Of a stretch of DNA of 40,340 bases, positions 1 to 40,340 are shown one piece after another. Each line of letters starts with the position of its first letter. Positions within the stretch are counted from its first letter, which is position 1. The notes under the pieces were generated by a model. That model had not been told where the DNA came from. It searched no databases and was given only the letters and a program-made list of their open reading frames with translations. Location of the stretch: UHGV virus genome UHGV-1357953. The stretch is one strand, 5' to 3'. The position numbers were made by a program, and so were the translations under genes. This stretch comes from a virus.

Positions 1-55
1 CCAGACCGCGCTGGGTAAGCGTTGACAGGTTGATGAGTAAATCTGTTTCTGCGCG
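1..55. repeat. Terminal 55-bp segment, exact reverse complement of 38178..38232 (inverted overlap A)
   Basis: Direct comparison: rc(1..55) equals 38178..38232; identity stops exactly at 56/38177. Confidence 0.9.
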
Positions 56-241: not shown

Positions 242-457
242 TTAAGCGGCTTTGTGTTCCGGCGGGAACACGTCATCAAGACTGACTTTTGCGCCTAACT
301 TGTTTAGGCACGCAACAAGAGCACGGCATGTTTTAAGGTCTGGGAAGCGACGACCAGATTCCCAATGTCCGATAGCTCCCTGTGTGCATCCAACTGCCTT
401 AGCAAGTGTTGTTTGAGAGATATTCAGTGACTCTCGATATTTTCGTAGGTTGCTCAT
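242..457 (-). CDS. cro: Cro-like HTH repressor (71 aa)
   Basis: Small HTH protein (QTTLAKAVGCTQGAIGHWESGRR) divergent from cI; GGAGG RBS before ATG at 457; the listed 128-aa ORF is an upstream extension. Confidence 0.75.
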   Translation of the reverse strand: MSNLRKYRESLNISQTTLAKAVGCTQGAIGHWESGRRFPDLKTCRALVACLNKLGAKVSLDDVFPPEHKAA

Positions 458-568: not shown

Positions 569-1228
569 ATGAAAATGAAATGGTATGAACTGGCTAGATC
601 CAGAATGAAAGAGCTCGGCATAACTCAAGAGAAGTTAGCCGAAGAGCTTGGTATGACGCAGGGTGGAATTGGTCACTGGTTGCGCGGATCTCGTCATCCA
701 TCTCTTGACGAGATTGGTGTGGTGTTTAAATACCTTGGTATTGATAACGTCTCATTCAACCACGACGGTACATTTTCACCTGTTGGCGAATACTCATCTG
801 CCCCCGTTAAAAAACAATATGAGTACCCTGTTTTTTCTCATGTTCAGGCCGGGATGTTCTCGCCTGAGCTTAGAACCTTTACCAAAGGTGATGCGGAGAG
901 ATGGGTCAGCACAACCAAAAAAGCCAGTGATTGTGCGTTTTGGCTTGAAGTTGAAGGTAATTCCATGACCGCGCCAACAGGATCCAAGCCAAGCTTTCCT
1001 GACGGGATGTTAATTCTCGTTGACCCTGAGCAGGCTGTTGAGCCAGGTGATTTCTGCATAGCCAGACTTGGTGGTGACGAGTTTACCTTCAAGAAACTGA
1101 TCAGGGATAGCGGTCAGGTGTTCCTACAACCACTAAACCCGCAATATCCAATGATTCCATGCAATGATAGCTGTTCCGTAGTAGGGAAAGTTATCGCTAG
1201 CCAGTGGCCTGAAGAGACATTTAGTTAA
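569..1228 (+). CDS. cI: CI immunity repressor: distinct N-terminal HTH domain fused to a lambda CI-like C-terminal S24 domain (GNSM Ser and FKK Lys present)
   Basis: C-terminal ~105 residues ([58 protein letters not shown]) match lambda CI as recalled; start at 569 or 575 (ORF listed from 527). Confidence 0.9.
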
Positions 1229-3158: not shown

Positions 3159-3192
3159 GAGCGTTTTTAAAGAATACAACGAAGGAGGATAT

Positions 3193-4161: not shown

Positions 4162-4185
4162 TAAAACCAACATAAGGAACCACCC

Positions 4186-4454: not shown

Positions 4455-4609
4455 GTTTTACAGATAACTGGTCAGACGAAGAATTCATTCGTCAGATGAA
4501 AGAATTAATCGGTAACGAAGGAGATATTCATGTCACTTGCAACCACAGTGAAGGAGAGCAAGTTACAGAGACGCATGTACACGCAGAAAGCTCTCTGGTA
4601 TCGCCATAA
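4451..4609 (+). CDS. Small hypothetical protein (52 aa)
   Basis: ATGA overlap with upstream gene; hand-translated. Confidence 0.3.
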   Translation: MSFTDNWSDEEFIRQMKELIGNEGDIHVTCNHSEGEQVTETHVHAESSLVSP

Positions 4610-4708
4610 TGGTGACCGCGAAGGAATGCGGGTATGCCTTAATTTGTCCCGAGTCGAAGTATTAAATCAGCGTTATTTCCTTGGGCCGTGTCCATTCTGA
4701 GGTGAATT

Positions 4709-5416
4709 ATGGATTTGAACAAATTCGATGAGCCATTCAGCCCTGAAGATATCGAATGGCGAATACAGCAAAGCGGTAAAACACGCGATGGCAAGGTGTG
4801 GGCTATGGTGCTGGCTTATGTCACGAACCGGGCAATCATGAAACGCCTGGACGATGTTTGCGGCAAAGCAGGATGGCGCAATGAATACCGCGATATTCCC
4901 AACAACGGCGGAGTTGAATGCGGCATATCAATCAAGATTGATTCCGAATGGGTAACCAAATGGGATGCTGCTGAAAACACGCAGGTAGAAGCCGTCAAAG
5001 GTGGTCGTTCCGGTGCAATGAAGCGTGCTGCCGTTCAGTGGGGAATCGGTCGGTATCTGTATAACCTTGAGGAAGGTTTCGCACAAACATCTCTCGATAA
5101 AAAGCAGGGGTGGCACAGGGCAAAACTGAAGGATGGAACAGGATTTTACTGGTCCCCTCCATCGCTGCCGGGATGGGCAATCCCAGCATCAGATAACAAA
5201 CCATCACCAGAAAATACCAACCAGAAATCTCCATCGGTTGACTGCGAACAAATCCTGAAAGACTTCAGCGATTATGCGTCAACAGAAACTGACAAGAAAA
5301 AACTCATCGAGCGTTATCAGCGTGACTGGCAATTAATGGCTGGCAACGAGGAGGCGCAGGCTAAATGCGTTCAGGTAATGAACATCAGAGTTAACGAACT
5401 AAAACAGGCGGCATAG
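4709..5416 (+). CDS. Rad52-family single-strand annealing protein (Sak-like)
   Basis: Motif GAMKRAAVQWGIGRYLY resembles the Rad52/Sak signature; immediately upstream of ssb. Confidence 0.6.
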   Translation: MDLNKFDEPFSPEDIEWRIQQSGKTRDGKVWAMVLAYVTNRAIMKRLDDVCGKAGWRNEYRDIPNNGGVECGISIKIDSEWVTKWDAAENTQVEAVKGGRSGAMKRAAVQWGIGRYLYNLEEGFAQTSLDKKQGWHRAKLKDGTGFYWSPPSLPGWAIPASDNKPSPENTNQKSPSVDCEQILKDFSDYASTETDKKKLIERYQRDWQLMAGNEEAQAKCVQVMNIRVNELKQAA

Positions 5417-5923
5417 ATGGCAAGCAGAGGCGTAAATAAGGTGATTATCCTTGGTCGGGTAGGACAAGACCCGGAAGTTCGATACTCACCATCAGGAACA
5501 GCGTTCGCTAACCTGACAATAGCCACGTCAGAACAATGGCGAGATAAAAATACTGGCGAGCAAAAGGAATTGACTGAATGGCATCGTGTTGCTGTATCCG
5601 GGAAACTGGCTGAGGTCGTGGGGCAGTATGTGAAAAAAGGTGATCAGATTTATTTCGAGGGAATGCTGAGAACCAGAAAGTGGAAAGACCAGTCAGGGCA
5701 AGACCGTTACACAACCGAGGTTCATGTCGGAATTAATGGCGTGATGCAAATGCTTGGCAGCATTGGCGACAGCAAACAACAAGCAGCCAGCAGGCAATCA
5801 CAGAAGCCACAGCAGCAATCATCACCAGCACAACACAACGAACCTCCGATGGATTTTGACGACGATATACCCTTTGCACCAGTAACTCTCCCCTTCCCTC
5901 GTCACGCTATTCACGCAATTTAA
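5417..5923 (+). CDS. ssb: Single-stranded DNA-binding protein
   Basis: OB-fold N-terminus ([18 protein letters not shown]), Gln-rich linker and C-terminal acidic tip DFDDDIPF. Confidence 0.9.
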
Positions 5924-5936
5924 TCAGGAGAAAATC

Positions 5937-6233
5937 ATGCCAGCGCCTCAGTATGGTGCGGATGACCCGCGCCGCTGTTCCGGTAATTCCGTATCGGAGG
6001 TGCTGGATAAATTCAGGAAAAACTACGACCGGATAATGTCGCTACCGCAGGAAACGAAAGAGGAAAAGGAATTTCGCCATTGTATATGGCTTGCAGAGAA
6101 AGAAGAACGCGAGCGAATTTACCAGACATTAATCCGACCATTCCGCAAAGCCACATATACCAACTTCCCTGAATATATCGACCCGCGCCTGCGTAATTAC
6201 CGCTCACGCTATGGCGCTATCAGTAATGACTGA
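5937..6233 (+). CDS. Hypothetical protein (98 aa)
   Basis: ORF with GGAG RBS. Confidence 0.5.
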
Positions 6234-6243
6234 GGAATTTACC

Positions 6244-6411
6244 ATGAGAGGACTTGCATACAATCCCGGCATTCTTCCGGCAGAAATGATTATTCGCCAA
6301 CGCGTAAAGCCAATGCCATCGAGAGAGGAATTGCTTAAGAGAAAGAGTTTCGGTTCTGTTAACGACAACAGATATCTGAATGCGACGTGGCGCAAAGGAG
6401 GCAACCAGTGA
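6244..6411 (+). CDS. Small hypothetical protein (55 aa)
   Basis: Internal ATG with GAGGAA RBS; the listed 6211 start overlaps the upstream gene. Confidence 0.35.
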
Positions 6412-6662
6412 GTAATTCAGCACGACTACAGCTTGGTTTTTCACCGCTATCAAAAACTATCATGCTGGCAAAAATGCGCGATGTTGAAGGTGGACGTATG
6501 CGCGTTGGCAATGATCCAGGTCGTGATGTTACCAATGAGGCTGCTCAATTGGTGTGGCGACTGGTCATGGCTGAAGGTGGTGAGATCGCGTGGGAGCTGG
6601 ATGATGGTTCTCGCATGGTGTTGAAGGCAGAAAAGCAGGAGGCAACCAGTGAGCAAGATTGA
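6408..6662 (+). CDS. Hypothetical protein, GTG start
   Basis: GTG preceded by aaaggaggcaaccag; the same 16-nt RBS-start module recurs at 6637..6652. Confidence 0.4.
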
Positions 6663-7467
6663 CTATCAGGCACTGCGTGCCAAGGCAGAAAAAGCAACGT
6701 GTGGTGTATGGTCGCTCGAATATGGAGAGAGCCGATTTGATTGTGATGATGCGCTAATTCATCGTGACGTTGTTGGATATCTTCCCATTTGCAGAATTGA
6801 AGGAGCGCATCCTGAAAGCGGTTTCGATGAAGATTTCCAAATGGAACAGCAGGCCAATGCTGAATTCATCGCCGCAGCTAATCCGGCTACCGTCTTGGCA
6901 TTACTGGATGAACGGGAAAGAAACCAGCAATACATCAAACGCCGCGACCAGGAGAACGAGGATATTGCGCTAACGGTAGGGAAGCTGCGCGTTGAGCTGG
7001 AAGGCAAAGACAGCAAAATAGCCAATCTTACCGCCGAACGCGATGCTCTTCGTGAAGGTGAGATGGGCGACGCTAGGCATAGCAACACACGGGCCGCAGC
7101 TGATATCTACTTCCAACTGGTCGAGGAGTGCGAAATTCCTGCTGGCGGTTCTCTGGTCGAGTACGTTGACGATATGCGAGAGAAGCTGGAAGCCTCAGAG
7201 AAGCGCATTGCAGAACTGAAAAGCAACGAAGTCCGTGAAGTCGGAAATCAGTTTCTTGTTGTTCGCCATCCTGGGAAAACTCCTGTCATCAAGCACTGCA
7301 CTGGTGACCTGGAAGAGTTTCTGCGGAAGTTAATCGAACAAGACCCGTTAGTAACTATCGACATCATTACGCATCGCTATTACGGGATTGGCGGTCAATG
7401 GGTTCAGGATGCAGTTGAGTATCTGCATATGATGTCTGACGCTGGCATTCGCATCAAAGGAGAGTGA
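6649..7467 (+). CDS. Ead/Ea22-like protein (272 aa)
   Basis: Motif NAEFIAAANPATVLALLDE plus central coiled coil; GTG start. Confidence 0.55.
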   Translation: MSKIDYQALRAKAEKATCGVWSLEYGESRFDCDDALIHRDVVGYLPICRIEGAHPESGFDEDFQMEQQANAEFIAAANPATVLALLDERERNQQYIKRRDQENEDIALTVGKLRVELEGKDSKIANLTAERDALREGEMGDARHSNTRAAADIYFQLVEECEIPAGGSLVEYVDDMREKLEASEKRIAELKSNEVREVGNQFLVVRHPGKTPVIKHCTGDLEEFLRKLIEQDPLVTIDIITHRYYGIGGQWVQDAVEYLHMMSDAGIRIKGE

Positions 7468-7468
7468 C

Positions 7469-8224
7469 ATGACCACTTTTACCGACAAAGAACTGATTAA
7501 AGAAATCAAAGAGCGAATCGGCAGCCTGGACGTGCGAGACAATATTGAGCGCCGTGCTTATGAAATTGCTCTGGCATCGCTGGAAGCAGAGCCGGTGGCG
7601 TGGATGCGTGATGACGCAGATGGTCGTGAGTATAACGCTCGCAATGAATTTTCTGGTGGAGGGGGAGGAGTTCCACTCTACGCCACCCCTCCAGCGCCAG
7701 TAGTACCGGAAGAAAAACCAATTCCTAATCCTCTTAGCATGTACGCGGTTGATGCGGTTGCCGCTATTGCAGAGGTAAGAGGCTGGAACGCCTGCCGCGC
7801 TGCCATGCTTCATAGTGCCGAACCTGCAAGTAATCATGAAGAGTTGCCGCTTGATTATCTCCAAGGTCAAAAAGATGGTCTTGAATGGGCTGCGCAGCTT
7901 GCAGAAGCAAATCACCCACAAACTGGCGACTGGCTTTACGATGACCCGCTGGAGCTGGCTAAAGCTATCAGAAAAGGTCCTGACATGCCCGAATTCGATG
8001 GACCAACTCCGGTAAATCCGGATGGTTGGATAAGCTGTAGTGAGCGAATGCCGGAAGAAACGGGTGACATTATTGTTGTTTCGGATGGCATTGTAATGTC
8101 AGGGATTTCTTATTCTCGTCGTGACGGGTTCTATATAGCCGCATTGGAGTACGACGACGATGAGCCAATTGGCGGTGTAACCCACTGGATGCTGCTACCG
8201 GAGCCGCCGCAGGAGGTGAAGTGA
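7469..8224 (+). CDS. DUF551-domain protein (251 aa)
   Basis: C-terminal GWISCSERMPEE...GGVTHWMLLPEPP matches the DUF551 signature. Confidence 0.65.
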   Translation: MTTFTDKELIKEIKERIGSLDVRDNIERRAYEIALASLEAEPVAWMRDDADGREYNARNEFSGGGGGVPLYATPPAPVVPEEKPIPNPLSMYAVDAVAAIAEVRGWNACRAAMLHSAEPASNHEELPLDYLQGQKDGLEWAAQLAEANHPQTGDWLYDDPLELAKAIRKGPDMPEFDGPTPVNPDGWISCSERMPEETGDIIVVSDGIVMSGISYSRRDGFYIAALEYDDDEPIGGVTHWMLLPEPPQEVK

Positions 8225-8508
8225 TGGACTCCTTCGCGAAATATACGATTATTGACTGGATAGCATTCCTTCAGGTTTTGCTCATCTGGTTTTATATGGC
8301 TTACAGGAGTGGACAGTGGATTGTCAGTGTAGCCTGTAGCAAGGGATGGCGTTGGTGGAACCGAAAGAATAAAAAAGCACTGGCATTGGATTCGTTTTAC
8401 GAAGCATTCAATCTTAACAGCCTTCAGCCTGGTTCTGTCATTGTAGTCACCACTCAAAGCGGCATGACGATACAAATTCACAAGCCAAAGGAGGAAGGTC
8501 GTGGCTAA
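8224..8508 (+). CDS. Hypothetical protein with N-terminal hydrophobic segment (94 aa)
   Basis: ATG 8224 with AGGAGG RBS (listed start 8221 is GTG). Confidence 0.45.
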   Translation: MDSFAKYTIIDWIAFLQVLLIWFYMAYRSGQWIVSVACSKGWRWWNRKNKKALALDSFYEAFNLNSLQPGSVIVVTTQSGMTIQIHKPKEEGRG

Positions 8509-8540
8509 CCTGCAACTTGCCGTTAAAGGTGAATAACAAT

Positions 8541-8596
8541 CCTCGCACTCGCGGGGATTTCTTTTATCTGAACTCGCTACGGCGAGTTTTGTTTTA
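8541..8596 (+). terminator. Two tandem intrinsic terminators
   Basis: cctcgc/gcgggg hairpin then atttcttttat; aactcgc/gcgagtt hairpin then ttttgttttat. Confidence 0.5.
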
Positions 8597-8608
8597 TGGA
8601 GATGATAA

Positions 8609-8776
8609 ATGCACTTCCGAGTTACAGGTGAATGGAATGGAGAACCATTCAACAGAGTTATCGAAGCCGAGAACATCAACGACTGCTATGACCACTGGAT
8701 GATATGGGCGCAGATAGCACATGCAGACGTAACCAATATTCGAATTGAAGAAATGAAAGAACACCAAGCCGCCTGA
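8609..8776 (+). CDS. Small hypothetical protein (55 aa)
   Basis: ATG with GGAG RBS; stop inside the next terminator hairpin. Confidence 0.35.
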   Translation: MHFRVTGEWNGEPFNRVIEAENINDCYDHWMIWAQIAHADVTNIRIEEMKEHQAA

Positions 8777-8792
8777 TGGCGGTTTCTTTTTG
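8767..8792 (+). terminator. Intrinsic terminator
   Basis: ccgcc/ggcgg stem with tgat loop (contains the TGA stop) then tttctttttg. Confidence 0.55.
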
Positions 8793-8806
8793 CCTGGAGA
8801 ATTAAG

Positions 8807-8998
8807 ATGACCGATACCAGCCTGATTCCTGAGAAAGAAGTGATGAACAAGCTCGGTGTTTCATCACGTCAGACAATCTGGAACTATACCAAACGGCACG
8901 GATTTCCGAAGCCAGTCAGAACCCACCCCAAATCATACCTTCGTGAAGCTGTTGAAGGGTGGATTCTTAACGGTGGCGTTAACCAGAAATGTTCCTGA
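8807..8998 (+). CDS. AlpA-family excisionase-like HTH protein (63 aa)
   Basis: IPEKEVMNKLGVSSRQTIWNYTKRHGFPKP fits the AlpA/Xis pattern; last gene of the pL operon, 20-bp 3' overlap with int. Confidence 0.65.
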   Translation: MTDTSLIPEKEVMNKLGVSSRQTIWNYTKRHGFPKPVRTHPKSYLREAVEGWILNGGVNQKCS

Positions 8999-10157
8999 TG
9001 TGCCAGAACAATTTATCAGCGTGAAGCTCATACGCTTTGCGCTGAGCCTCTATCCAATCGTGTTTATTGTACACGGACATTATCCCGCCAAGTTCATGAC
9101 CGAGCATTCGCTCAGTAACATGAGGCTCGACATTCATCTCGGACAGACGTGTAACAAGCGTTCTTCTGAAATCATGTGTTCGCCAGTAACCTATATCCAT
9201 CCCTCCCCTTATTCTATTTACGAATCGGTTGGCTGCAGCGATGCTGATCGGTTTGTTTATGTCTTCTCCAGGGAAAAGAACATCATTGTACGTTGTCATG
9301 GCCTTTTCGAGGAAAGGCTTAATTTGTTCGAAGATTGGACGGCGGATAACATTACCCATCTTGCTATGCTCTTTCGGTACGGTCCATACGTTTTCCAGCA
9401 GGTCAAATTCTGTCTTTGTTGCCAGCCTAAGCTCTGAGAGCCTCGCCCCCCACAGCATAAGCATCTGATGAAGGAGCTTATTTGACGTAGACGCACGGCT
9501 TCTTTCAATAGCAATCCAAATCTTAGCCAGTTCGTGATACGACAGTACCCGATCCCCTACCTCAGCGCGGGAGCCGAAGTCCCTTGGCTGGATGCTCATA
9601 ATTGCGCAACTATCTATCAACTGACGCCGCATGCACCAACTAATTGCTGATCTTAGTTGACTTAGCACCTGCCTTGCTCGGCGTGGATTATCTTTTTCTT
9701 CTTCGGTAAGCAGGTCAACCCATTGCTTAACCGTGATAGAAGATGCCGGACGATTAGGGAAGGCGTCATGCATGCGCTTCATAACCGTTGATCGGTAAAG
9801 TGCCTGGGTCTTTTCTCTGAGAGTTGTAGAGACGTAGTTGTCGAACCAGTAGTCGAGACACTGGGCGACCGTCATGGAGTTCTCCACCTTCTCTTCAAAA
9901 TAGGTGCGTGGATCCGTTCCTGAGAAATAGAGCTTTCGCAAGTCAGCAGTGATCTGTCTGGCATCCTTCAAAGACAGGGATGGGTATCGACCAAGCCCAA
10001 GGCGATTAGGCTTGCCATGCCAGCGATAGCGGTACTGGAACTGGATGACCCCCTTCGGTGAAATTCGTACGCTGAGGCCATCTGCATCAGCCACTTCTTG
10101 TGGGCCCGAATATGGTTTACCATAAATAGTACGCAGTTTTGTGTCGCTTATAGCCAT
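8979..10157 (-). CDS. int: Tyrosine integrase (392 aa)
   Basis: N-terminal arm-binding-type domain, C-terminal catalytic region (..HDFRRT..LGHELGG..Y); adjacent to arm-type repeats. Confidence 0.9.
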   Translation of the reverse strand: MAISDTKLRTIYGKPYSGPQEVADADGLSVRISPKGVIQFQYRYRWHGKPNRLGLGRYPSLSLKDARQITADLRKLYFSGTDPRTYFEEKVENSMTVAQCLDYWFDNYVSTTLREKTQALYRSTVMKRMHDAFPNRPASSITVKQWVDLLTEEEKDNPRRARQVLSQLRSAISWCMRRQLIDSCAIMSIQPRDFGSRAEVGDRVLSYHELAKIWIAIERSRASTSNKLLHQMLMLWGARLSELRLATKTEFDLLENVWTVPKEHSKMGNVIRRPIFEQIKPFLEKAMTTYNDVLFPGEDINKPISIAAANRFVNRIRGGMDIGYWRTHDFRRTLVTRLSEMNVEPHVTERMLGHELGGIMSVYNKHDWIEAQRKAYELHADKLFWHIRNISG

Positions 10158-10159
10158 AA

Positions 10160-10470
10160 ATAATATTTGGTACGCTCAAAAATAATGGTTTGGTACACAT
10201 CTGGTACACAATATCACATGGACAACAGCGCACAGTAAACAACTATATTTGACGTTCGTAGACATACTCAGGTGAAAAAATGGTTGTTTTTCGAGTTATA
10301 ACAGACAGTTAATTAACTACAGTGGACAATGCTAGACAATGACAGACACAGATAAACAACCTACCTTCCTCTTTCACGATTACGCGCAACACCCCTGAGA
10401 ACCGCCATGAACAAGGGTTTCATGATTTGTGATTTTAGTTTGGTACGCAATTTGGTACACAACACAATTT
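10160..10470. other. attP region: five arm-type repeats TTTGGTAC(G/A)C (10167..10176, 10189..10198, 10202..10209, 10439..10448, 10451..10460) flanking a ~230-bp putative core
   Basis: Direct repeats clustered next to the int start; core not identified and no tRNA-like sequence found. Confidence 0.5.
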
Positions 10471-11122: not shown

Positions 11123-13261
11123 TCATAAAATAGATTTCGTCTTTGTAACAATAACATCTACAAAATCGCCTGCAGATATAGCTGATGGTACTGTATCTGC
11201 AAGAGTAATCTTTCCTGAAGAGATGCTTTGCACATCTAATAATTTATTTTCAATCCCATCCGTATATACCAATTTGATATCACTGAGTGGAGGGTAATAA
11301 GTGATTGTTCCTTGGTATACATATATTTCACTACCTGAAATCGATTTCACTACATACCTGCCCCTTACAAGATTAATTTTGAGTTCAGATAAATCGGTTT
11401 TATAACAGGTAATTCCTGAACCAATGTTAGCCATACTAATATCAGTATCACTATAATAAGTAAGTGCTTTCCCTTGTTTTAAAGTAAAAGTATTTTTACT
11501 TTTCCTTGGTAAGGATGTGCTATTTTTGTAATATCTACCAGTAAAGCATAGCCATGAAAATGCAGTATTCACTACATTACCACCAGAATACACAGCTAAA
11601 CGAATTGCACTAACTGGAACCCCTTCATTATTAATCCTGATCTTAATGGAAGAAATATTAACAGCAGTGACATACCTATGGTTGGCAGAATCCCATTGCA
11701 TAGAAGAAGTTATGGCTTCTGTTTGTGAGGTTATGACATTCCCATCTCTATCTAATGCATACAGGTAAATGCGAAACGATGCCGTATCTGCTGAGAATGT
11801 AAACATATCACCATTTCTTACTGGTACATCTCCAGATTCCCATAACAACCCAAAATTCCGCATAAAAGCAAACTTAGAAGAAACCAGGTGACGGATATTA
11901 TATAAACCATCAACATCTGTTTGATATGCTAATGCACCAACTTCTCCATTGTTAGCACTGGATATAAATGGGGTGTTAGCATTTAAAGAAAACAATGTTA
12001 CTTCATCGGATATATTTTCCTGAATATGAAATACTGCATTCCCCTTGCCATTATCAGTTACCTCGACATAAGTGTAAGGCGATGGATTGTATGGCTCATT
12101 TGTATACGCAGGAGATGAAAGCCATGTAGCTTCAATTGAGTTATTCCACGTATATTCACCAAAGTTAATTATCAACTGTTGGTTAGTTGGGGATGATGGA
12201 TATCGTTCAAAACGAAACCCGTAGAAGTAATTGTTATCACCTCTTTGAATATCAATTTTACCTGCCCCCTCCATAGTTCCACCATAAAACTTATTGTGGT
12301 TATGATGATATGGATTATCAGCGAAAATGATATTATTCGTACGATTCAGATAAAAATAGTTTTCATTTATCCATCCTTTCTCAACTCCAAGAAAATGAAT
12401 TGTATCGACCTTTTTCAGGTTAAAGGTTGAGTATGCTATTGAATAATCCGTCGATGCCACCGAAGCATTATAATTTGCATATAACTGTAAGTAGTCGCAA
12501 CGCTCAATGTTTATATGCTGCCCTTTTGCCCCGATAATACGAATATCCGGTGTCGTTTCAGATGAAATACCAGAATTTCTGATAATCGTTCCGAAGTTTT
12601 GTCTTGGGTTGTTAGGGTTTGATGCATTCCCGCCAAGCAATACCCCTATTCCTGAGTGGGATATGGTAAAAACAGCATTGGTCATTTCGAGGCTGACATT
12701 ACGAAGATTTAATGTCGCCGTAATAATAAAATTACCTTCCGCTCGTAATGTTCTGGATGATTCTCGTGCATATTCTGCAGCCAAGATCAATGCAGATGTA
12801 TCATCTGTTATACCATCGCCTTTTGCCCCCCACCCTCTTACATCACAATCGTCCCTCCACCGAGATATCTGCAATTCAGGATATTTTTTAGCTCCATCCG
12901 GGTCTTCTAATTGCTGCCGTAGTTGATCAGGGTCATACTTCAGCACATTTGGAAAATAGAACTGCTGCGCACCACATGCATCATAAACAGCCATAGAATG
13001 GCCTTGCACAGTTACGAATTTGGCAATCTGTCCGTTATATACTGGATACCCAGCGGCATTGATGACGATTGGCTGTGCAACAGGAACGTGAGAACCATCT
13101 TCGTTCTCAACATAGACCTGAATCTGGTTATCAGGATTTACCGGGTCAGTGTCAATTTTACCGATATAAATTTTGCCATTAGCTACGGCTTTAAAAGAAC
13201 GCGCCATAGTGAAGAGTTGCGAAGGCATGCTCACTACAACATTGGCTGTAATGTCTGTCAT
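11123..13261 (-). CDS. Tailspike protein (712 aa): P22-type head-binding N-terminal domain, divergent receptor-binding body
   Basis: First ~110 residues ([42 protein letters not shown]) match P22 tailspike as recalled; remainder not recognised. Confidence 0.9.
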
Positions 13262-13393: not shown

Positions 13394-13651
13394 ATGATGT
13401 ACAGCAAATACGATGAGGCGCAGTTCCACTTGAGGCTTACGCACGAGTTGCACGCCAAGATTAAGCAACGTGCAAAAATGAATAACAGGTCTATCAATTC
13501 CGAAATTGTGGCTACGATGGAAGAATCGCTCTCCAAACCATCACCTGTAAGCGGGTATCGTGATGAAGAAGAGAGGCTGGCCTCATTAATCTCGGAACGA
13601 GTAAAAGAAGTTGCGGCTGAAATTCTAAGGAAAGAAAAAACCCGCGATTAA
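13394..13651 (+). CDS. mnt: Mnt-like ribbon-helix-helix repressor (85 aa)
   Basis: FHLRLTHELHAKIKQRAKMNNRSINSEIVATMEESLSKPSPVSGYRDEEERLA aligns with P22 Mnt as recalled; the listed 242-aa ORF is an upstream extension. Confidence 0.7.
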   Translation: MMYSKYDEAQFHLRLTHELHAKIKQRAKMNNRSINSEIVATMEESLSKPSPVSGYRDEEERLASLISERVKEVAAEILRKEKTRD

Positions 13652-13668
13652 GCGGGTTTAGTTTTCAT
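13636..13668. terminator. Bidirectional intrinsic terminator between convergent mnt-like and antirepressor genes
   Basis: aacccgc/gcgggtt hairpin flanked by an A-run upstream and a T-run downstream. Confidence 0.55.
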
Positions 13669-13677
13669 TATAAAATG

Positions 13678-14406
13678 TTACGCCACATTTGAGCCATGTA
13701 GTAGGTGTTGTAGTGCTTTAACGCCTTCAGAATTGTAACGGAACGCCTCTACCTGTTTGCTGGAATGCGCCGATTTATCCAGGAAGAACTTCCCGTACTG
13801 CTCAGTTTTGAGGTTGTTTGCGTTAGCAATGCGACCAATCTTGTTGGCCGTTACTCCAAGCTGCTCTGCAACCTCCCCTGCTGAGTAGTAATGCTCTTCT
13901 ATTGCCGGAAGAGGTATTGCATTAAAACCAACGAGCGGGTTGATTATACTTGCTGCCGCTGTCTGCTTTGCCTCAGGCGCAAGATTTGGCATCAGATCGA
14001 ACAGATTGGTAACAGCTTCAACCGTCATTTTCAATGTTCGCGCTTGACGATACTCAACAAGTCCACTCGCTGATTTACCGCTTTTAATGTGCGCTTCTTG
14101 CATACTTTCAAGTTGGTCTACCAGTGAGCGGCGAACGGCTTTTGACTCGCGAGCGGCAACTCGCAATGCTTGCTTGATTGACATCTCAATGATAACCATC
14201 GAAGTTTTGTTCGCTTTTTGCACTACACTTTTTGTGTAGTGCTCTCCATCCAATTCATCTTCAATTTTCTCGATGAATTTGTTATTACGAACCTCCGGCT
14301 CACCGCACTGTCTACGAGCCTGATTTACCATCTCAAGAAGGCGCTGGCTGTCAATGGTTTTATCCGTGACAACGGATCCGATGTTTGCTACATTCTTAAA
14401 AGTCAT
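13678..14406 (-). CDS. Antirepressor-like protein with KilAC-type C-terminal region (242 aa)
   Basis: ATG 14406 with AAGGA RBS; C-terminal ..AGEVAEQLGVTANKIGRIANANNLKTEQYGKFF resembles the KilAC pattern. Confidence 0.55.
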   Translation of the reverse strand: MTFKNVANIGSVVTDKTIDSQRLLEMVNQARRQCGEPEVRNNKFIEKIEDELDGEHYTKSVVQKANKTSMVIIEMSIKQALRVAARESKAVRRSLVDQLESMQEAHIKSGKSASGLVEYRQARTLKMTVEAVTNLFDLMPNLAPEAKQTAAASIINPLVGFNAIPLPAIEEHYYSAGEVAEQLGVTANKIGRIANANNLKTEQYGKFFLDKSAHSSKQVEAFRYNSEGVKALQHLLHGSNVA

Positions 14407-14444
14407 TAGGCATTCCTTATGTGGTAGTAAGGGTGTGACATAGG

Positions 14445-14476
14445 CCGCCAGCAGCACACTGGCGGTTTTCTTTTTG
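14445..14476 (+). terminator. Plus-strand intrinsic terminator inside a minus-strand operon; candidate 3' end of a sar-like antisense RNA
   Basis: ccgccag/ctggcgg stem then ttttctttttg; no plus-strand CDS feeds it. Confidence 0.45.
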
Positions 14477-14494: not shown

Positions 14495-15121
14495 TCAATG
14501 AATCCATTCCTCGCCGCGCAGTTTTGCCAGCATTGGCTGAGCGTTCTTTACGACAAAATTGTTGGTATCAAGATTCTTCATTTCACGAAGAAGTGATTTC
14601 TTGGTTTCTTCTGACATATAGCGAGTCTCATATGCGATATCGTAAATCCTTCCTGAAAGCTCAGAACAAATTTGCTTCATTCCTGGGTAGATGTGTTTGC
14701 ACATTTGTTGACTCTTCTCCATCCACAATTGTAAGTAGCAGAGATTAACCAGTTCTTCGTCAGTAAACTGTTTTGCAATCGGTGAGCATTCTGCCTGCCG
14801 ATCCAAAATATCCAGCACCCAGCGGCGGAACTCTTTGGCTACCGGAGTGCGAGCAAACATCGCGATTAGGTGGGCACCGCGTAGTGAGAAAACTCGCACT
14901 TTTTTGCGATAATTTCCTGAGGTACTCACTTCGAGTACCTGAGTCATTCCAGCGCTAAACTCATCGCTATACTTGTTATAAATCATTGTTACTGCACGAC
15001 TATTTGCGTATTTAAGTGCAGATGCAATATTAGATGATGTAAACCAAACACCATGCATATCACGGGTGGGCACCAACTCAACTCCGTGGAAGTTGTATTC
15101 TGATTTTGCTACAATATTCAT
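14495..15121 (-). CDS. ant: Antirepressor with Bro-N-like N-terminal domain (208 aa)
   Basis: NFHGVELVPTRDMHGVWFTSSNIASAL is Bro-N-like; ATG 15121 with AAGGA RBS. Confidence 0.6.
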   Translation of the reverse strand: MNIVAKSEYNFHGVELVPTRDMHGVWFTSSNIASALKYANSRAVTMIYNKYSDEFSAGMTQVLEVSTSGNYRKKVRVFSLRGAHLIAMFARTPVAKEFRRWVLDILDRQAECSPIAKQFTDEELVNLCYLQLWMEKSQQMCKHIYPGMKQICSELSGRIYDIAYETRYMSEETKKSLLREMKNLDTNNFVVKNAQPMLAKLRGEEWIH

Positions 15122-15194
15122 GTTAGTTTCCTTGCATACGGTTACTGACATAGAGGCCCGGTTTGTGTTCGCGCACTGCCGGGCTTCACTATTT

Positions 15195-15368
15195 TTATTG
15201 GATGACAACATCGCCCTTTGCCTCAAGTTTCATCAATAACTCCATTCGATAAGCTATCTCTGCCTGAATTGACCTATGGCATCTTTTTGCTGATTCGCGG
15301 ATATGTGAATCAACCTTTTCTGTAAAACGAACCTGACGCGGCTTGATGGAAGATATCTTTTCAGTCAT
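15195..15368 (-). CDS. Arc-like ribbon-helix-helix protein (57 aa), first gene of the antirepressor operon
   Basis: Hand-translated MTEKISSIKPRQVRFTEKVDSHIREASKRCHRSIQAEIAYRMELL; position equivalent to P22 arc. Confidence 0.45.
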   Translation of the reverse strand: MTEKISSIKPRQVRFTEKVDSHIRESAKRCHRSIQAEIAYRMELLMKLEAKGDVVIQ

Positions 15369-15467
15369 TATGCACTCCTGTTTTTAAAAAACTCATAATC
15401 TCACTTTTTGTAGTTTGATTATTCACTCACACTCAGTATGAGTCAATGAATTTTTTATGGTGAACTA

Positions 15468-16109
15468 ATGAATTTTGACGATCAATTCCCATCAAGAGTA
15501 TCTCTGGCAAGACAGTCCAGGGGTATGACGCAGGCGCAGTTGTCAAAATTAGCTGGTGTTGTTCAACGTCAAATAGCTGCATACGAGGGTGGTGAGGCTA
15601 AACCACGGCTTCGGGTATTGCAGGCATTAGCCAACGCATTAGGTACTACGGCTGAGTGGTTAGCTCTAGGTGAAGGTCAGGGTCCGGGAACAAAAAACGT
15701 CATGCCTGACGTTCTGGTAAAGCAAATACCAATCCTCAAACTAGATGAAGTTATGCATTACCTAAACACAGGTGAACATTCATCGTCTAGATTTCATCCG
15801 GCAATATACAATGTTGGTGACTCTGCATTTGCATTGACTATTGAAGGTGAAGCTATGACTACAAGTTCAGGTATTAGTTTTCCCAGAGGATCGGTTGTCA
15901 CGTTCAGCCCTCTAGTAAAAGCTAAAAGCAAAGATTATGTAATAGCATCATTGGATAAAGAACAAATATTGAGCTTCAAACAGGTTTACATTGGTGAAAT
16001 AGAGACAAACCTAGTATCCCTAAACCCAATGTATCCTAATATTCTTGTTAGAAATGAAGATGTTAGTATTTTGGCAACCGCAGTTTACCTTGAAATCCCG
16101 TTGCTTTGA
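15468..16109 (+). CDS. Second CI/LexA-type repressor (HTH plus S24-like domain) with the catalytic Ser replaced by Ala (EGEAM)
   Basis: N-terminal HTH (MTQAQLSKLAGVVQRQIAAYEGG); C-terminal S24-like fold; gct at 15850..15852 encodes Ala where the G-(D/N)-S-M nucleophile is expected. Confidence 0.75.
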   Translation: MNFDDQFPSRVSLARQSRGMTQAQLSKLAGVVQRQIAAYEGGEAKPRLRVLQALANALGTTAEWLALGEGQGPGTKNVMPDVLVKQIPILKLDEVMHYLNTGEHSSSRFHPAIYNVGDSAFALTIEGEAMTTSSGISFPRGSVVTFSPLVKAKSKDYVIASLDKEQILSFKQVYIGEIETNLVSLNPMYPNILVRNEDVSILATAVYLEIPLL

Positions 16110-16169
16110 TATCCTTTAGGAAGCGACACATTATCATCTGGTATCCTGCGCAAAACTAAGGAGGTTGGT

Positions 16170-16499
16170 GTGCTTGAATGGTTTCTGTTGGCTGCATTAG
16201 TCGTTTCTGGTTTGGTGTATGAGTATCGAATGCACTCTCTAACAAAAAAAATAGGAATTCTAGAAAACGAATATTGTGCTCTCAAATCCTCACTGGAACG
16301 TGAGCAAGGAGACTTAAAAATCTCTCTGTCTAGCATTGAGAGTTCTATAGAGAGCCTAGAGGATAAGGTTGATCGTATAAAGAATGAGGATATTCATGAT
16401 ATTAAGGACGACATATCCTTCTTAAAATCTTGGTTGAAAAATGTTGGTAAAATTGCCACATCAACACGAGATAAGCTCAATCCATCCATGGATGACTAA
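16170..16499 (+). CDS. Membrane-anchored coiled-coil protein (109 aa), GTG start
   Basis: TAAGGAGG RBS 5 nt before GTG; N-terminal TM helix then heptad-like repeats. Confidence 0.45.
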   Translation: MLEWFLLAALVVSGLVYEYRMHSLTKKIGILENEYCALKSSLEREQGDLKISLSSIESSIESLEDKVDRIKNEDIHDIKDDISFLKSWLKNVGKIATSTRDKLNPSMDD

Positions 16500-18659
16500 T
16501 TACTCCTGTGCCATTCCGCTTAGCGATGCCACAATTCCAGCCCTTGCTAAACGCTGGAACTCTTCGTTTCCTAGTGCCTCGCGTATTGCTTTTACGGCGG
16601 CCTTATTTGCCATAAATCTGCGTTCAGCCGCCGCTAATGCTTCTTTACTTCCGCCAGCTCTTACTGCTTTCGTGGCTTCCCGAACTGCTTTCTCTATCGC
16701 ATATCGACCGCTACGCGTGGTGGCAATTTTAGATACAGCGCCTTTTAACCCAGCGCCAACTAAAGCACCTGCGGCAGCGCCTGCAATGCCTCCTCCAGCG
16801 CCACCAACAATGGCACCTGATGTTGAATTGGCAATTGCATTTAACACTGTTGATGTGACGTTGGATAAACCAGCATCCAGATCGCGTAGTACATTGGCAG
16901 TTCTACCTGTTCTTTCAATATACTGCTGAGGTTTCACTGCTGCTCTTGCAAGAGTGCCATATGCATCAGCAATTCTTCCAAGCTCTGAGGAATATCGGCT
17001 AATGGCTTTTACATTTTGTGGAGTCAGTATCTCTGCGATATGGTTAATTCCTGCTGCATCAGCTTTGCCACCACGTACACCATGCGAGATAGCATCTTGC
17101 AACATTGATGATATAGCAGGAACACGCTCTGATTCTGGCAGCGCGCGGATCATAGAATGGAATCCAGCAGGACCATTAAGACCTTTAGCTGACGATGATT
17201 GAAGGGATTTTACTCCATTCGTAATCAGTGCATCTGTTGCCAAATCACGCCCGAAAACAGACTCTGCACTCTCTTGTGCTGATAACCTCGCTTTAGACAG
17301 ATCATTAGCTTTCTGCCAGTCATCAAGAAATCCGCCGTTTTCCGCCATTGTGCGCATATCATCAGTAATTGCCCGGCGTATTTCCCCTGCTCTCCTTGCC
17401 GCATTTGCCTCTCCGCTACGCTTATATTTTTGCTCCGCATCAGCAAATTTCGCTCTCCATGCTTTCATGCCATCAAATGTTACTCCACCTTGATTGTTTG
17501 CCTGAACAAACTGTTTCATTTCAGGAGTAAGCGGTATGCCAGCAGATCGCTCTGCCTGAATAACGGCATTACCATTTAGCATTCTTGCTTTTTGATTTGG
17601 CATTGTTGACCGCACGTCATCCCATGCCGCGCGCTCAGCATCCTTCATCTGATCAAGATTTTGAAGAATCCTTTGTTTTATAGCCGCACTTTTTTCTGAT
17701 GCCGTTCCAGATGCGGCCCCAAATTCATCAAGGTTTCGACTTAACTTTGATGATATTTCGTTAAATGCTGCCTGATGGGCATCCTGAACAATCCCTGGTG
17801 TTGATGCCAATGCGCCTTCGGCTTGTGCAATTCCACGACTTCCAGATCGCATTCCTGGTGTTAATGCGTTTATATCAATTCCAGCAGACTCAGCCGCTTT
17901 TGCTACATCTTCGGACACATTAGCGGCCTGACTGGCAATTGACTGACGCCCAGCACCTGACTTTGCCATCCTGGAAACATCATTAGCAGAATTCAGTGCT
18001 GCACCACCAAGAGCCTGTGAAACCCTTGGCGCAATAACGCGCCCGACACCTGAAAGAACGCCTTGAGCACCAATATTGATACCACCGTTAATGGCAGCAT
18101 TTTGTGCAAAATCACCCTCCTGATTTGCAGCATCAGCAAGAGAACCGGCAATCATGTTTCCTGCGGAACCGATGTCTCCTGCGAGCTTTGCTGGCGCTCC
18201 AGCAGCTTTTGCTGCTGTGCCAATTGGCAGGAGATACCCACCAATTGTTTCACCGGCTTGCGCGTAAGGGTCTGTCGGTCGATCGACTGGACGATAGACA
18301 TCATCCAAAACCTTGGGGCCACCAAGCCCCTGGCTGATTGCATTAATCAGACTTGCGCCACCCTGCAATACGTCAAATGGTATGTTTACCAGACCACGAC
18401 CAGCCTGCTCTGCAATTTGCCCTGCACTTTGACCACCAGTGAGCCAATCGCCAGCTTGTTGCATCAATGATGGTTCTTCTTTCTGCTGCTGAGGCGGAGG
18501 GTATGCTGCATAAAACTGATCTCTTGCTTCAGCCCATTTGTCACCAGCCTTAGGGGCAACAACCTCATCAAAATATTGCGCTTGAGCCTGTGCTTTCTGT
18601 TCTTCAGTTAACGCCTGATACTGTGGAGAAGCGATAACATCTTTCCATGCTTTAGCCAT
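16500..18659 (-). CDS. Ejection / internal virion protein, P22 gp16-like (719 aa)
   Basis: Gly/Ala-rich large protein last in the gp7-gp20-gp16 block. Confidence 0.7.
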
Positions 18660-37415: not shown

Positions 37416-38177
37416 TCATACGTCAGCCCCTTGTGCATATCGTCTGCCACGCGCAGCAGGTGCATTTGATGCTGTGCAAATCTGTCTGGCTTCATCCTGG
37501 TCACACGCAACAAAGTGTCCGTTGCAGAACCGCTGGTAAACCGTACCAAGTGAGCCAAAACGGTTTTTCGTCACGATGATTTCAGCAAATGGCGCGGCGC
37601 TACTGTTCTCGTCATATACAGCTTCCCGATAGAGCATGATGATTGAGTCTGCGTCCTGTTCAATGCTTCCTGAATCACGCAAATCTGCGTTTGTCGGGCG
37701 CTTGTTTGGTCGCTTCTCAACATCGCGTGAAAGCTGACTCAGGGAAATAACCGGTGTTTTCAGGTCTTTCGCCATCGCCTTCATGCTTCCGGAGATGTGA
37801 GCAATTGCGAGGTCGTTGCGGTCTGCTTTCGGCTTCTCAATCAGGCCAAGATAATCCGCCATGATGAGTGACAGGTTTGGATTTTCCTGTTTGTGCCTTT
37901 CTGCGATTGAGCGAATTTCTTCGACCGATAACCGCGAGGCATCGACTACCCATACATCCAAATCTGCAAGCTGACTCATGCCGTTAGCAACACGCGCCCA
38001 GCCTTCGTCATCCATCGATGCAGGATTTCGCAGTACGCTAACCGACATTCTCCCGGCGTTGGCAATGCTTCGCTCTGCAATCTGCAATGCGCTCATTTCC
38101 ATTGAGAAAATCAATACTCCGCGCCGGACGTCAGAACCAGGAATAACGCGGCTTGCAACGCCTTCGGCAATCTTCAG
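37416..38177 (-). CDS. DnaB-like replicative helicase, C-terminal 253 codons ([29 protein letters not shown]... to stop); N-terminal part lies inverted at 39674..40340
   Basis: Frame stays open upstream of the listed start (which is an internal TTG) back to 38177; first 17 codons duplicate the last 17 codons of the plus-strand fragment. Confidence 0.8.
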
Positions 38178-38232
38178 CGCGCAGAAACAGATTTACTCAT
38201 CAACCTGTCAACGCTTACCCAGCGCGGTCTGG
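38126..38232. repeat. Junction composite: 38126..38180 is the reverse complement of 40286..40340, and 38178..38232 is the reverse complement of 1..55
   Basis: Both identities are exact, exactly 55 bp, and abut with a 3-bp overlap (cgc) at 38178..38180. Confidence 0.9.
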
Positions 38233-38432
38233 CAAAGATGATTGGCTGTCATGAATCGAAGATAAGCAGAACGGACTGGAGATTTATTGCTTCGGTCTTG
38301 TGTGCTTTCGGAATGGCATCAGACATCAGTCCGATTAGCAGGGCTTTTAAGTATGCGCTTGATGAAATCACCAATAAAAAACGCCCGGTGTGCAAGACCG
38401 AGCGTTCTGAACAAATCCAGATGGATTTTTAA
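38178..38432 (+). CDS. cII: cII-like activator, C-terminal 84 codons (RAETDLL...[21 protein letters not shown]); no start codon, truncated at the junction
   Basis: Open frame begins at the junction without an initiator; C-terminus is lambda CII-like; first 18 codons duplicate the minus-strand fragment at 1..55. Confidence 0.6.
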
Positions 38433-38454
38433 CAACATCCAACGAGGTAATTAT

Positions 38455-38727
38455 ATGCGAAACAAAGGCTTTAATCCACCTGATACACACAAAGAAGCTA
38501 AGCGTTTGCGCTTCCTTCGTTCCATTGATGAAAGAACTCAAATCTCTTTTGTGAAAGTTGCCAGAACTGAGCTTCTGAAGGCTGAGGCGAGGGCGTTGCT
38601 CCAGTCTCTACCAAAAGAGGAGGGATATACGTTCATTCCAAACGCATTTCTGGAAAAGCTTCTCAAAGAAGACATATCCGTAAGTCAGTTTAACGATGTT
38701 CTTAAGGTCTTTCGTCAAGGCAGGTAG
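38455..38727 (+). CDS. Hypothetical protein between cII and O (90 aa)
   Basis: ATG 38455 with GAGGT RBS; the listed ORF from 38287 is an upstream extension. Confidence 0.5.
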   Translation: MRNKGFNPPDTHKEAKRLRFLRSIDERTQISFVKVARTELLKAEARALLQSLPKEEGYTFIPNAFLEKLLKEDISVSQFNDVLKVFRQGR

Positions 38728-38729
38728 TT

Positions 38730-39677
38730 ATGAGCAATACAGCAAAAATCTACGATTTCAGCGCCGCACACGAGCGCAGGAGCAACAGGATGGAGAACCA
38801 GAAAACTGGTTACATTCCGTTGTACCGGAGCATTCTGAAACAGTCATGGGCGAAAGATGTTTATCTTCGCACCCTGTGGGAAAACCTTCTCCTGAATGCC
38901 GCCAGAAAGCCATACAAAGCGAATTTCAAAGGTAATGAATGGCATCTGCAACCCGGTCAACTGGTTGTGACAGCAGCTGATTTAGGTCTTCAGTTATGCG
39001 ACAGACATGGCAAGCCAGCAAGCCGTGATCAGGTTGAGCGGATGCTTCAGGTTTTTGTGAAAGAGGGGATGATCTCCATTGATGGAGAGAAGCAAAAAGG
39101 TCGTGTGATAACCATCACAAATTACCATGAATATGCTCAAAAAATGGACGATTTACCCGCACATGAAGCCGCACAAACAACCGCACATGATTCCGCACAT
39201 GATGAAGCCAGCAATGGCGCGGCTTTCAGCGTACATGCCGCACATGAAAGCGCACATGAAGCCGCACAAACAACCGCACATCATGAACAAGAAGGTATTA
39301 ACAAGAATATAAATAATACCCCCCTACCCCCCAATGGGGGAGGCGATGGGCAGGTTAAACCTGAACGTCGCAAGGCAGAACGAATCGACTACGAATCCTT
39401 CCTGAACGCCTACAACACCGAAGTCGGTGACAGACTGCCACACGCTGTTGCGGTCAACGAGAAACGCAAACGCCGCCTGAAGAAAATCATCCCGCAACTG
39501 AAAACGCCAAACGTGGACGGTTTCAGGGCGTATGTCAGGGCGTTTGTGCATCAGGCCAAGCCGTTTTACTTCGGAGACAACGACACGGGCTGGACGGCTG
39601 ATTTTGATTACCTGCTGAGAGAAGACTCGTTAACGGGAGTTCGGGAAGGGAAGTTTGCAGACAGGGGGATTGCATGA
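38730..39677 (+). CDS. O: O-like replication initiator (315 aa) containing the origin iterons
   Basis: N-terminus [10 protein letters not shown] resembles lambda O (MTNTAKILNF); internal [10 protein letters not shown] repeats are encoded by the iterons; TGA overlaps the helicase ATG. Confidence 0.75.
39157..39345. other. Replication origin-like region: eight CCGCACA(T/A)GA-type iterons, AT-rich segment, then cccccctaccccccaatggggg
   Basis: Direct repeats inside the O-like gene followed by an AT-rich stretch, as in lambda ori. Confidence 0.5.
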
Positions 39678-40340
39678 AACAGGATATCGAAGCGAGCGTT
39701 ATCGGTGGCCTGCTGATTGGTGGATTAACACCAACCGCCAGCGACGTTCTGGCAACGCTGGAGCCGGAAGCGTTTTCAATTCCGCTCTACCGGAAAGCCT
39801 TCGAGGTTATCCGCAAGCAGGCGCGAAACAGAAACCTAATCGACGCGCTGATGGTTGCCGAGGCGTGCGGAGAGGAGCATTTCACGTCAATCCTGATGAC
39901 CAGCAAAAACTGCCCGAGTGCCGCAAACCTGAAGGGATATGCCGGAATGGTCGCGGATAACTATCACCGCCGTCTGGTGCTGGAAATCATGGATGAAATG
40001 CGTGAACCAATTCAGAGCGGAACCATCGATACATCGAGTCAGGCGATGGACGAGCTCGTAAAGCGTCTTTCAGCTATCAGAAAGCCCCGTGACGAGGTTA
40101 AACCTGTACGGTTAGGGGAAATCATCACCGACTACACTGACACGCTTGACAGGCGTCTGAGGAACGGAGAAGAGTCCGATACCCTGAAGACCGGAATCGA
40201 AGAGCTTGACGCTATCACCGGAGGGATGAACGCAGAAGACCTGGTGATAATCGCTGCTCGTCCTGGTATGGGGAAAACCGAACTGGCGCTGAAGATTGCC
40301 GAAGGCGTTGCAAGCCGCGTTATTCCTGGTTCTGACGTCC
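39674..40340 (+). CDS. DnaB-like replicative helicase, N-terminal 222 codons including Walker A ([17 protein letters not shown]); runs off window end, C-terminal part inverted at 38177..37416
   Basis: ATG 39674 overlapping the O stop; N-terminal DnaB-like domain; last 55 nt are the reverse complement of 38126..38180. Confidence 0.8.
40286..40340. repeat. Terminal 55-bp segment, exact reverse complement of 38126..38180 (inverted overlap B)
   Basis: Direct comparison; identity stops exactly at 40285/38181. Confidence 0.9.

Follow-up and report, generated by a model that had tools for sequence, protein, structure and literature searches.

The virus genome UHGV-1357953, analysed here as one stretch of 40,340 nt (the window), carries at positions 15468..16109 of the plus strand a gene for a 213-residue repressor of the CI type that is transcribed divergently from an antirepressor (ant) operon and has lost two of the three determinants of S24 self-cleavage. 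The serine nucleophile is replaced by alanine (Ala129), and the Ala-Gly bond that such repressors cut is replaced by Val95-Met96. We propose that this protein is a cleavage-dead, Mnt-like maintenance repressor of Pant, the promoter of the ant operon, and we put the probability of this reading at about 0.68. It draws on the residues concerned, the fold of the protein, the synteny of its surroundings, their conservation among relatives, and the absence of a LexA box from the intervening control region.

The product of 15468..16109 is a two-domain repressor derived from CI, with a 434/CI-type helix-turn-helix (HTH), a linker and an S24-fold C-terminal domain (CTD). Pfam places HTH_3 at residues 14-65 (48.4 bits) and Peptidase_S24 (PF00717) at residues 108-206 (47.9 bits, against a cutoff of 23.3), and the protein matches the PHROG 4 transcriptional repressor family with an E-value of 7.5e-30. 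Its best PDB relatives are fragments of lambda CI (phmmer 1e-7; Foldseek 2e-11), and the HTH matches the N-terminal domain of the 434 repressor at 4e-6. An AlphaFold (AF2) model built from 23 homologues has a predicted local distance difference test score (pLDDT) of 86.5, and it matches the lambda CI CTD (1f39; Foldseek TMt 0.84, root mean square deviation 1.8 A) as well as the C-terminal domains of LexA and UmuD'. The sequence WLxxGxG following the HTH was considered as an alternative cleavage motif and dropped, as we take it to be the ordinary terminus of 434/P22-type HTH domains. Membership of the repressor or its neighbours in a defence system was also ruled out, PADLOC returning nothing for the genes around it and, for the repressor itself, generic HTH matches alone.

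The start codon is the ATG at 15468, and the MNFDD N-terminus that follows from it is kept in homologues. Phage JEP4 (MT740315, Lederbergvirus) encodes an identical protein, publicly named 'repressor protein C2', whose coding sequence JEP4_14 (L001:6073-6642) is annotated as starting 24 codons late, at a TTG inside the HTH. Because the MNFDD N-terminus is conserved, the real start in JEP4 is the ATG at L001:6001.

The nucleophile position lies within nucleotides 15840-15857, which read ATT GAA GGT GAA GCT ATG (I-E-G-E-A-M) in the frame of the repressor gene; the E-G-E-A-M had been reported by the first-pass annotation of this sequence. A phmmer search of PDB pairs the segment 'ltiEGEAMTtssg..isFPrGsvv' with lambda CI, and because it aligns EGEAM with the nucleophile motif of lambda CI, Ala129 corresponds to lambda Ser149, and likewise to LexA Ser119. 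The register is identical in a MAFFT alignment of lambda CI, Escherichia coli LexA and the CI protein encoded elsewhere in the window, and in an hmmalign alignment to the family profile. The codon for Ala129 is GCT, as had been noted, at 15852..15854 with the diagnostic G at 15852, two bases beyond the earlier placement at 15850-15852. The lysine region is retained, again as previously described: 'lsFKQv' of the repressor pairs with 'ftFKKl' of lambda, and Lys171 (AAA, 15978..15980) stands at the site of the general base (lambda CI Lys192, LexA Lys156). A search by alignment for an intact serine placed elsewhere revealed none, and comparisons at the level of sequence, of profile and of structure (Foldseek), with lambda CI and LexA as references, are in agreement. 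An alternative nucleophile was rejected on the same grounds, phmmer, MAFFT, hmmalign and Foldseek all sharing one register in which Thr131, Thr132, Ser133 and Ser134 fall outside G-x-S-M. The repressor thus lacks the serine of the G-x-S-M motif and has the lysine general base, the S24 fold and the N-terminal DNA-binding domain.

The alanine codon might in principle be a sequencing or assembly error, or the mark of a decaying pseudogene in a defective prophage, since TCT to GCT is a single-base difference and there is an apparent assembly or orientation problem elsewhere in the window, at 38.1-40.3 kb. Against this, GCT is present in all 28 independent near-identical loci that were fetched (JEP4, the E. 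coli HS prophage and 26 IMG/VR contigs), and at least 1000 contigs in the protein collection encode the very same protein. Between the JEP4 gene and that of the window there are 4 differences, all of them synonymous. Every sequence listed for the 90% cluster of the repressor, from E. coli and Salmonella, has EGEAM, and a search of 5426 complete E. coli genomes gave 28 in which 80% or more of 15150-16200 is present with 98.5-99.9% identity. Alanine is also found in homologues of 76% and 72% identity, the latter (L005) likewise encoding it with GCT; a homologue of 81% identity (L003) has TCT at this codon. The open reading frame (ORF) is intact, and non-synonymous divergence (dN) is far below synonymous divergence (dS). 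Independent sequences therefore refute an error, against which the first-pass annotation had cautioned, as well as a pseudogene, and we give these explanations practically no credence.

The scissile bond is missing as well. In LexA, lambda CI and the CI of the window, Ala-Gly lies at +7/+8 from the proline of an hPhh strand (e.g. VPLVGRVAA/G, or YPVFSHVQA/G in lambda, the slash marking the bond). The corresponding stretch of the repressor, following a conserved 'IPIL' strand, is IPILKLDEV-M, and in MAFFT alignments with these three proteins Val95-Met96 (GTT ATG, 15750..15755) replaces Ala-Gly. In the AF2 model residues 92-101 form a helix (pLDDT 90 for the block) instead of the strand-loop-strand. 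Self-cleavage in the S24 family is defined by an Ala-Gly (or Cys-Gly) bond together with a Ser-Lys dyad (PMC8565304; PMC3121763), and of these three determinants the serine and the Ala-Gly fail in the repressor and the lysine is kept. The earlier prediction that the protein does not undergo RecA-stimulated autocleavage, made from the Ser-to-Ala change, is thus supported and was, if anything, understated. Because the Ala-Gly bond is also gone, an A129S revertant alone is predicted not to cleave. From the alignments and the model we infer that the repressor has lost canonical self-cleavage for good.

The C-terminal domain has nonetheless been retained under constraint. In comparisons of the repressor with its 81% (L003) and 72% (L005) homologues dS is saturated and dN in the CTD is 0.18-0.27, which argues that the S24 fold is under purifying selection despite the lost nucleophile. 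The retained CTD is likely to be non-catalytic, serving dimerisation or cooperative binding as in CI.

Loss of the cut site is characteristic of the relatives of this protein. At the aligned position none of 91 related loci has Ala-Gly or Cys-Gly; 73 of these loci come from IMG/VR, and the other 18 were drawn from genomes, phages and metagenomes. Among roughly 45 close representatives at 50% identity Ala-Gly is kept in two (P0016 and P0045), and P0016 has Ala-Gly, serine and lysine all present. A family profile recovered 119 representatives at 50% identity, and in this larger set both dyad residues are kept in 32 of the 34 members with Ala-Gly or Cys-Gly and in 49 of the 85 without it; 11 of the latter have lost the serine, 15 the lysine (to arginine) and 10 both. 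A Fisher exact test of this association, uncorrected for phylogeny, gives p = 6e-5. On a neighbour-joining tree built without bootstrap, the serine position changes at least 4 times, and a serine-bearing Atlantibacter/Enterobacter group is nested within the alanine clade that holds the window protein, which suggests that the position toggles between serine and alanine and that Ala-Gly is not restored. As judged from these sequences, the family pattern is one of relaxed constraint on catalysis once the substrate site has been lost.

The second part of the argument concerns the position of the gene. The repressor does face an antirepressor operon, as had been stated, and Pfam and PHROG identify two ant genes in it. 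In all 91 related loci a gene of one 57-residue family lies divergently, about 100 nt upstream of the repressor, and Ant homologues are behind it in most. Throughout the sequences collected the repressor family is found in a single cassette, composed of the HTH-S24 gene, a control region of about 100 bp, and a divergent gene for a probable ribbon-helix-helix (RHH) protein followed by one or more ant genes. The cassette occurs in P22-like phages, and in the window it lies between the gene 16 and tailspike homologues. In L003 (Logan ERR885451 contig, 3100-10400) it is instead between tape-measure and minor tail genes of a lambda-like siphovirus tail operon, which indicates that the cassette moves between unrelated virion modules; L005 has it in another tailspike phage, and in L006-L008 it adjoins an integrase in Salmonella. 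The E. coli HS prophage has a copy with an IS3 insertion, and over 15150-16163 its identity to the window is 98.5%. The ORF that follows the repressor gene varies or is missing in E. coli HS, JEP4 and L003-L008.

In the window the operon begins with a 57-residue RHH-like gene (15195..15368, minus strand; PHROG 10182, E 2e-36, function unknown), followed by ant1 (14495..15226, minus strand; P22_AR_C 8.5e-13, Bro-N 2.1e-10, PHROG 245 Ant 1e-64), whose true start is probably an internal ATG, and ant2 (13678..14457, minus strand; PHROG 1726 anti-repressor 9e-101, no Pfam match). A profile of the 57-residue family finds RHH proteins alone in PDB, with weak scores (AmrZ E 0.0025, CopG and Arc 0.08-0.4, with Arc itself at 0.24-0.4). 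Direct homology to Arc of P22 was considered and set aside: BLASTP of the 57-residue protein against Arc gives no match, and profile methods weakly favour an RHH fold (hhalign probability 24% against Arc; Pfam ParD_like below the cutoff). From these comparisons it is a probable Arc analogue.

A 109-residue ORF (16170..16499, plus strand; PHROG 5962, 1e-60, function unknown) lies downstream of the repressor gene, in the slot occupied by sieA in P22, and is followed by the gene for an ejection protein homologous to that of gene 16 (16500..18659, minus strand). It encodes an N-terminal hydrophobic helix and a coiled coil, is preceded by a strong Shine-Dalgarno sequence, AAGGAGG, and has no match in Pfam or PADLOC. 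It is probably co-transcribed with the repressor, to judge from its position and ribosome-binding sequence, and is a candidate moron or exclusion gene expressed in the lysogen. E. coli HS has an unrelated 212-residue ORF in the same slot. RNA structure predicted for the spacer between the repressor and this ORF does not stand out from that of shuffled sequences (z = -0.37), and a search of the whole window against Rfam gave no match.

At the other end of the operon there is a homologue of Mnt (13394..13651, plus strand; Pfam Arc, 2.9e-15), and beyond it the tailspike gene (11123..13261, minus strand). The Mnt homologue is convergent with ant2, 1.7 kb from the repressor and outside the position of mnt in P22, and the residues of its N-terminal strand presumably differ from those of P22 Mnt. 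It is present in JEP4 and E. coli HS also, but is not associated with the cassette elsewhere. A bidirectional terminator-like hairpin at the junction of ant2 and the mnt homologue (13638..13659) has an 8-bp stem, of which 5 pairs are GC, with a run of T on either strand.

The repressor and the RHH-ant operon are separated by a divergent control region of 99-100 bp (15369..15467). Its length is conserved in distant homologues, being ~99-106 nt in most of the 91 loci and reaching ~132 nt where the tblastn match to the RHH gene is partial. A consensus scan locates a candidate sigma-70-like Pant, TTGACT-17-AATAAT (15446..15418, minus strand; 10/12 matches), which points into the RHH-ant operon, and of 13 non-redundant control regions 10 have TTGACT/AGTCAA, always at one set spacing from the start codon of the repressor gene. 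This promoter is bracketed by an inverted repeat (15385..15457) with arms of 19 nt at 15385-15403 and 15439-15457 that are 79% complementary. The core of the repeat is ACTCAT...ATGAGT, and there is a local palindrome, ACTCA-GTA-TGAGT, at 15432-15444; these provide candidate operator half-sites. ACTCAT/ATGAGT is the most conserved non-A/T hexamer, again in 10 of the 13 control regions, and in the Providencia/Morganella clade ACTTCAT/ATGAAGT is found in its place. Given these consensus and conservation matches, the elements are candidate operators or promoter elements. A LexA box at Pant was sought and ruled out, there being no CTGT-N8-ACAG site with one mismatch or fewer in 15368-15468; the same scan of the whole window gives 11 matches, no more than expected by chance. 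With alanine at the nucleophile site, the register maintained and no LexA box in the control region, the prediction that the ant operon is not directly derepressed through this repressor in the SOS response stands.

The window also encodes a primary CI/C2-type repressor (569..1228, plus strand; Pfam Peptidase_S24, 100 bits), divergent from a Cro-like HTH gene (242..436, minus strand). The Ala-Gly bond, serine and lysine of this CI are intact, VQAG, EGNSM and TFKK all being present, which bears out the observation that it retains the catalytic motif; it is presumed to be the SOS sensor and the target of Ant. In a lysogen the 15468..16109 repressor, probably as a dimer held by its CTD, would bind operators overlapping Pant and keep RHH-ant1-ant2 silent in the manner of Mnt, and the RHH protein would, in the manner of Arc, restrain the expression of ant once a cell has been infected. 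RecA-stimulated self-cleavage could not remove the repressor, and only the intact primary CI would register DNA damage. Ant would then be made solely on superinfection, before the repressor builds up, or by read-through from the late operon, which is possible because the cassette shares the orientation of the late genes. Once made, it could act on the repressors of other prophages, an activity of P22 Ant that has been discussed (PMC3121763). Because Mnt of P22 is equally blind to the SOS response, non-inducibility is the expected design here. The Ser-to-Ala change emphasised by the first-pass annotation is real, but its framing as a notable defect calls for adjustment, as the cut site is missing from the family as a whole and the slot is that of P22 Mnt, which is itself unresponsive to SOS.

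Several points weigh against a Mnt-like role at Pant. The activity of the repressor is assigned by comparison with other proteins, and full-text searches of the literature turned up no characterisation of the protein or of the cassette. The Kapi1 transcriptome paper (PMC12922286) was considered and set aside, as it deals with a P22-like phage with a classical mnt-arc-ant region and has no bearing on the cassette. Among phage records none besides JEP4 has a match to the repressor above 60% identity. The promoter and operators are consensus and conservation matches, the promoter scan is no richer in matches than shuffled sequence, and ATGAGTCAA might be conserved as a promoter hexamer and not as an operator. 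More than half of the members without Ala-Gly keep both serine and lysine, which the view of a dead protease does not fully explain, and the neighbour-joining tree carries no support values. Finally, a true Mnt homologue co-exists with the repressor, and the two may divide the labour between them.

Alternatively, the repressor might not control ant at all, and would instead be an autoregulated moron regulator driving the 109-residue ORF, or an additional immunity repressor directed against other phages, with ant controlled by the RHH protein, the Mnt homologue or both. The Mnt homologue is a real one (Pfam Arc, 3e-15), the ORF with its strong Shine-Dalgarno sequence directly follows the repressor gene, and the operator assignment is tentative. 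However, the ORF is the inconstant member of the arrangement in other phages and prophages, whereas every one of the 91 loci, siphovirus contexts without mnt among them, has the divergent RHH-ant partner, and the Mnt homologue stands apart from the repressor and converges on ant2; we consider this explanation unlikely. It is also conceivable that the repressor still responds to a signal, perhaps DNA damage, by a non-canonical route, so that ant would be inducible after all. The routes that can be named are cleavage in trans by an S24 protein that has the serine (the primary CI or LexA, for example), cleavage at another bond, a host protease, or a dedicated antirepressor. UmuD and LexA are known to undergo intermolecular cleavage, the repressor still has Lys171 and the general scaffold of the active site, and most relatives have serine and lysine and no Ala-Gly, so that they could be acting on a non-canonical substrate. 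Set against these considerations are the aligned site devoid of Ala-Gly or Cys-Gly, the loop modelled as a helix, and the repeated, independent loss of serine and lysine in the family, as expected under relaxed catalytic constraint; moreover, the alanine allele itself could be a substrate only and never an enzyme. A response of this kind appears unlikely.

A broader interpretation, which we regard as a long shot, is that the cassette family represents a stepwise natural decay series of S24 self-cleavage, the state reached setting whether the portable antirepressor is coupled to DNA damage. A few members would then keep Ala-Gly, serine and lysine, most would have lost Ala-Gly only, and several lineages would subsequently have lost serine, lysine or both; members with serine and lysine and no Ala-Gly might cleave a non-canonical bond or act in trans. 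If this were true, phages could switch between SOS-coupled and uncoupled cross-induction of co-resident prophages by single substitutions, and the Ala/Ser change between the window allele and its 81% relative would be an example of such a switch.

Two features of the window as a whole lie outside the cassette. The final 2.2 kb (38126..40340, with 1..55) is apparently inverted relative to the rest. A DnaB-like helicase is split, its C-terminal part lying on the minus strand (38114..37416) and its N-terminal part running from 39674 to the end of the window on the plus strand, and between these parts a Phage_rep_O gene (38730..39677, plus strand) and a 146-residue ORF are oriented opposite to the cro and nin genes. 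Positions 1-55 are the reverse complement of 38178-38232 (100%), and 40283-40340 that of 38126-38184 (98.3%); inverting the segment gives one ORF of ~480 residues and the canonical cro-O-helicase-nin order on a circle. Because overlaps of 55-59 nt resemble those of assembly-graph unitigs, the inversion is most likely an artefact of orientation. The second feature is a tyrosine integrase (8979..10157, minus strand; Arm-DNA-bind_3 and Phage_integrase), which shares its strand with the late genes and is opposite both to the early-left genes (Rad52-like, SSB, Ead/Ea22 and DUF551, all on the plus strand) and to the orientation of the JEP4 integrase.

The cassette is common, occurring in E. coli and Salmonella and in both podovirus and siphovirus tail regions, and so bears on induction of polylysogens and on cross-induction through antirepressors. 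Its repressor family also offers natural variants with which to address the role of the S24 domain after catalysis is lost and the changes needed to regain cleavage, such as alanine versus serine at 81% identity and one member with Ala-Gly, serine and lysine intact. For annotation, the labels 'LexA family' or 'peptidase S24' on proteins of this kind should not be taken to mean SOS-inducible.

The arrangement is known biology with a variation, in which the proposed maintenance repressor of an antirepressor cassette of the immI type is a pseudo-protease derived from CI, and as such will not surprise a specialist. With lambda CI, P22 C2 and the 434 repressor (MEROPS S24) the protein shares a 434-type HTH ending in WLxxG, a linker with an hPhh strand, an S24-fold CTD and the lysine; it differs from them in having alanine for serine, Val-Met for Ala-Gly and a cleavage loop predicted as a helix, and in that its gene is not at immC but inside the late operon, facing the antirepressor operon. 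The changes resemble those of laboratory Ind- mutants, the first being the same as LexA S119A and lambda CI S149A, and the loss of the P1' glycine being comparable to LexA G85D. The non-inducible set also includes lambda CI K192A, and the mutant structures 1jhh, 1jhf and 2ho0 are among the fold matches of the repressor. Unlike the laboratory mutations, those of the repressor arose in nature, occur together in a single protein and have become fixed in an allele that is widespread.

The closest functional parallel is Mnt of P22 (immI). The repressor gene occupies the same slot inside the late operon, with the gene 16 homologue on one side and the gene 9 homologue on the other (the ORF order and the JEP4 and E. 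coli HS annotations agree on this), and is likewise divergent from an ant operon, here headed by the probable RHH gene; this slot corresponds to immI, or the 'ant moron' slot, of P22-like phages as set out in PMC2629481. Its inferred job, keeping ant off in the lysogen, and its insensitivity to SOS would also be the same. The folds are unrelated, Mnt being a tetrameric ribbon-helix-helix protein, so that where P22 has a divergent RHH Mnt the window has a divergent HTH-S24 gene, and a true Mnt homologue in addition elsewhere. A non-self-cleaving repressor alongside antirepressor genes is also found in Gifsy-1/-2/-3 (GfoR/GtgR), N15 (CB/AntC) and 186 (CI/Tum). In those phages the non-cleavable protein is the primary repressor (in Gifsy a small protein with no S24 domain) and the antirepressor is under a LexA box, whereas in the window the non-cleavable protein is predicted to control ant, no LexA box was found in the control region, and the primary CI is cleavable.

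The same cassette is, lastly, the 'HS-1 type ant moron' of E. coli HS (Villafane, Casjens et al. 2008, PMC2629481). According to the part of that account used here, HS-1 has ant genes with no recognisable arc and must control ant otherwise than P22, and the HTH-S24 controller, the small RHH gene and the losses of catalysis and of the cleavage site are not identified there. The HTH-S24 repressor and the small RHH gene likely supply this missing control of ant in HS-1, and the likely controller of the HS-1 type ant moron is thus a CI homologue turned pseudo-protease.

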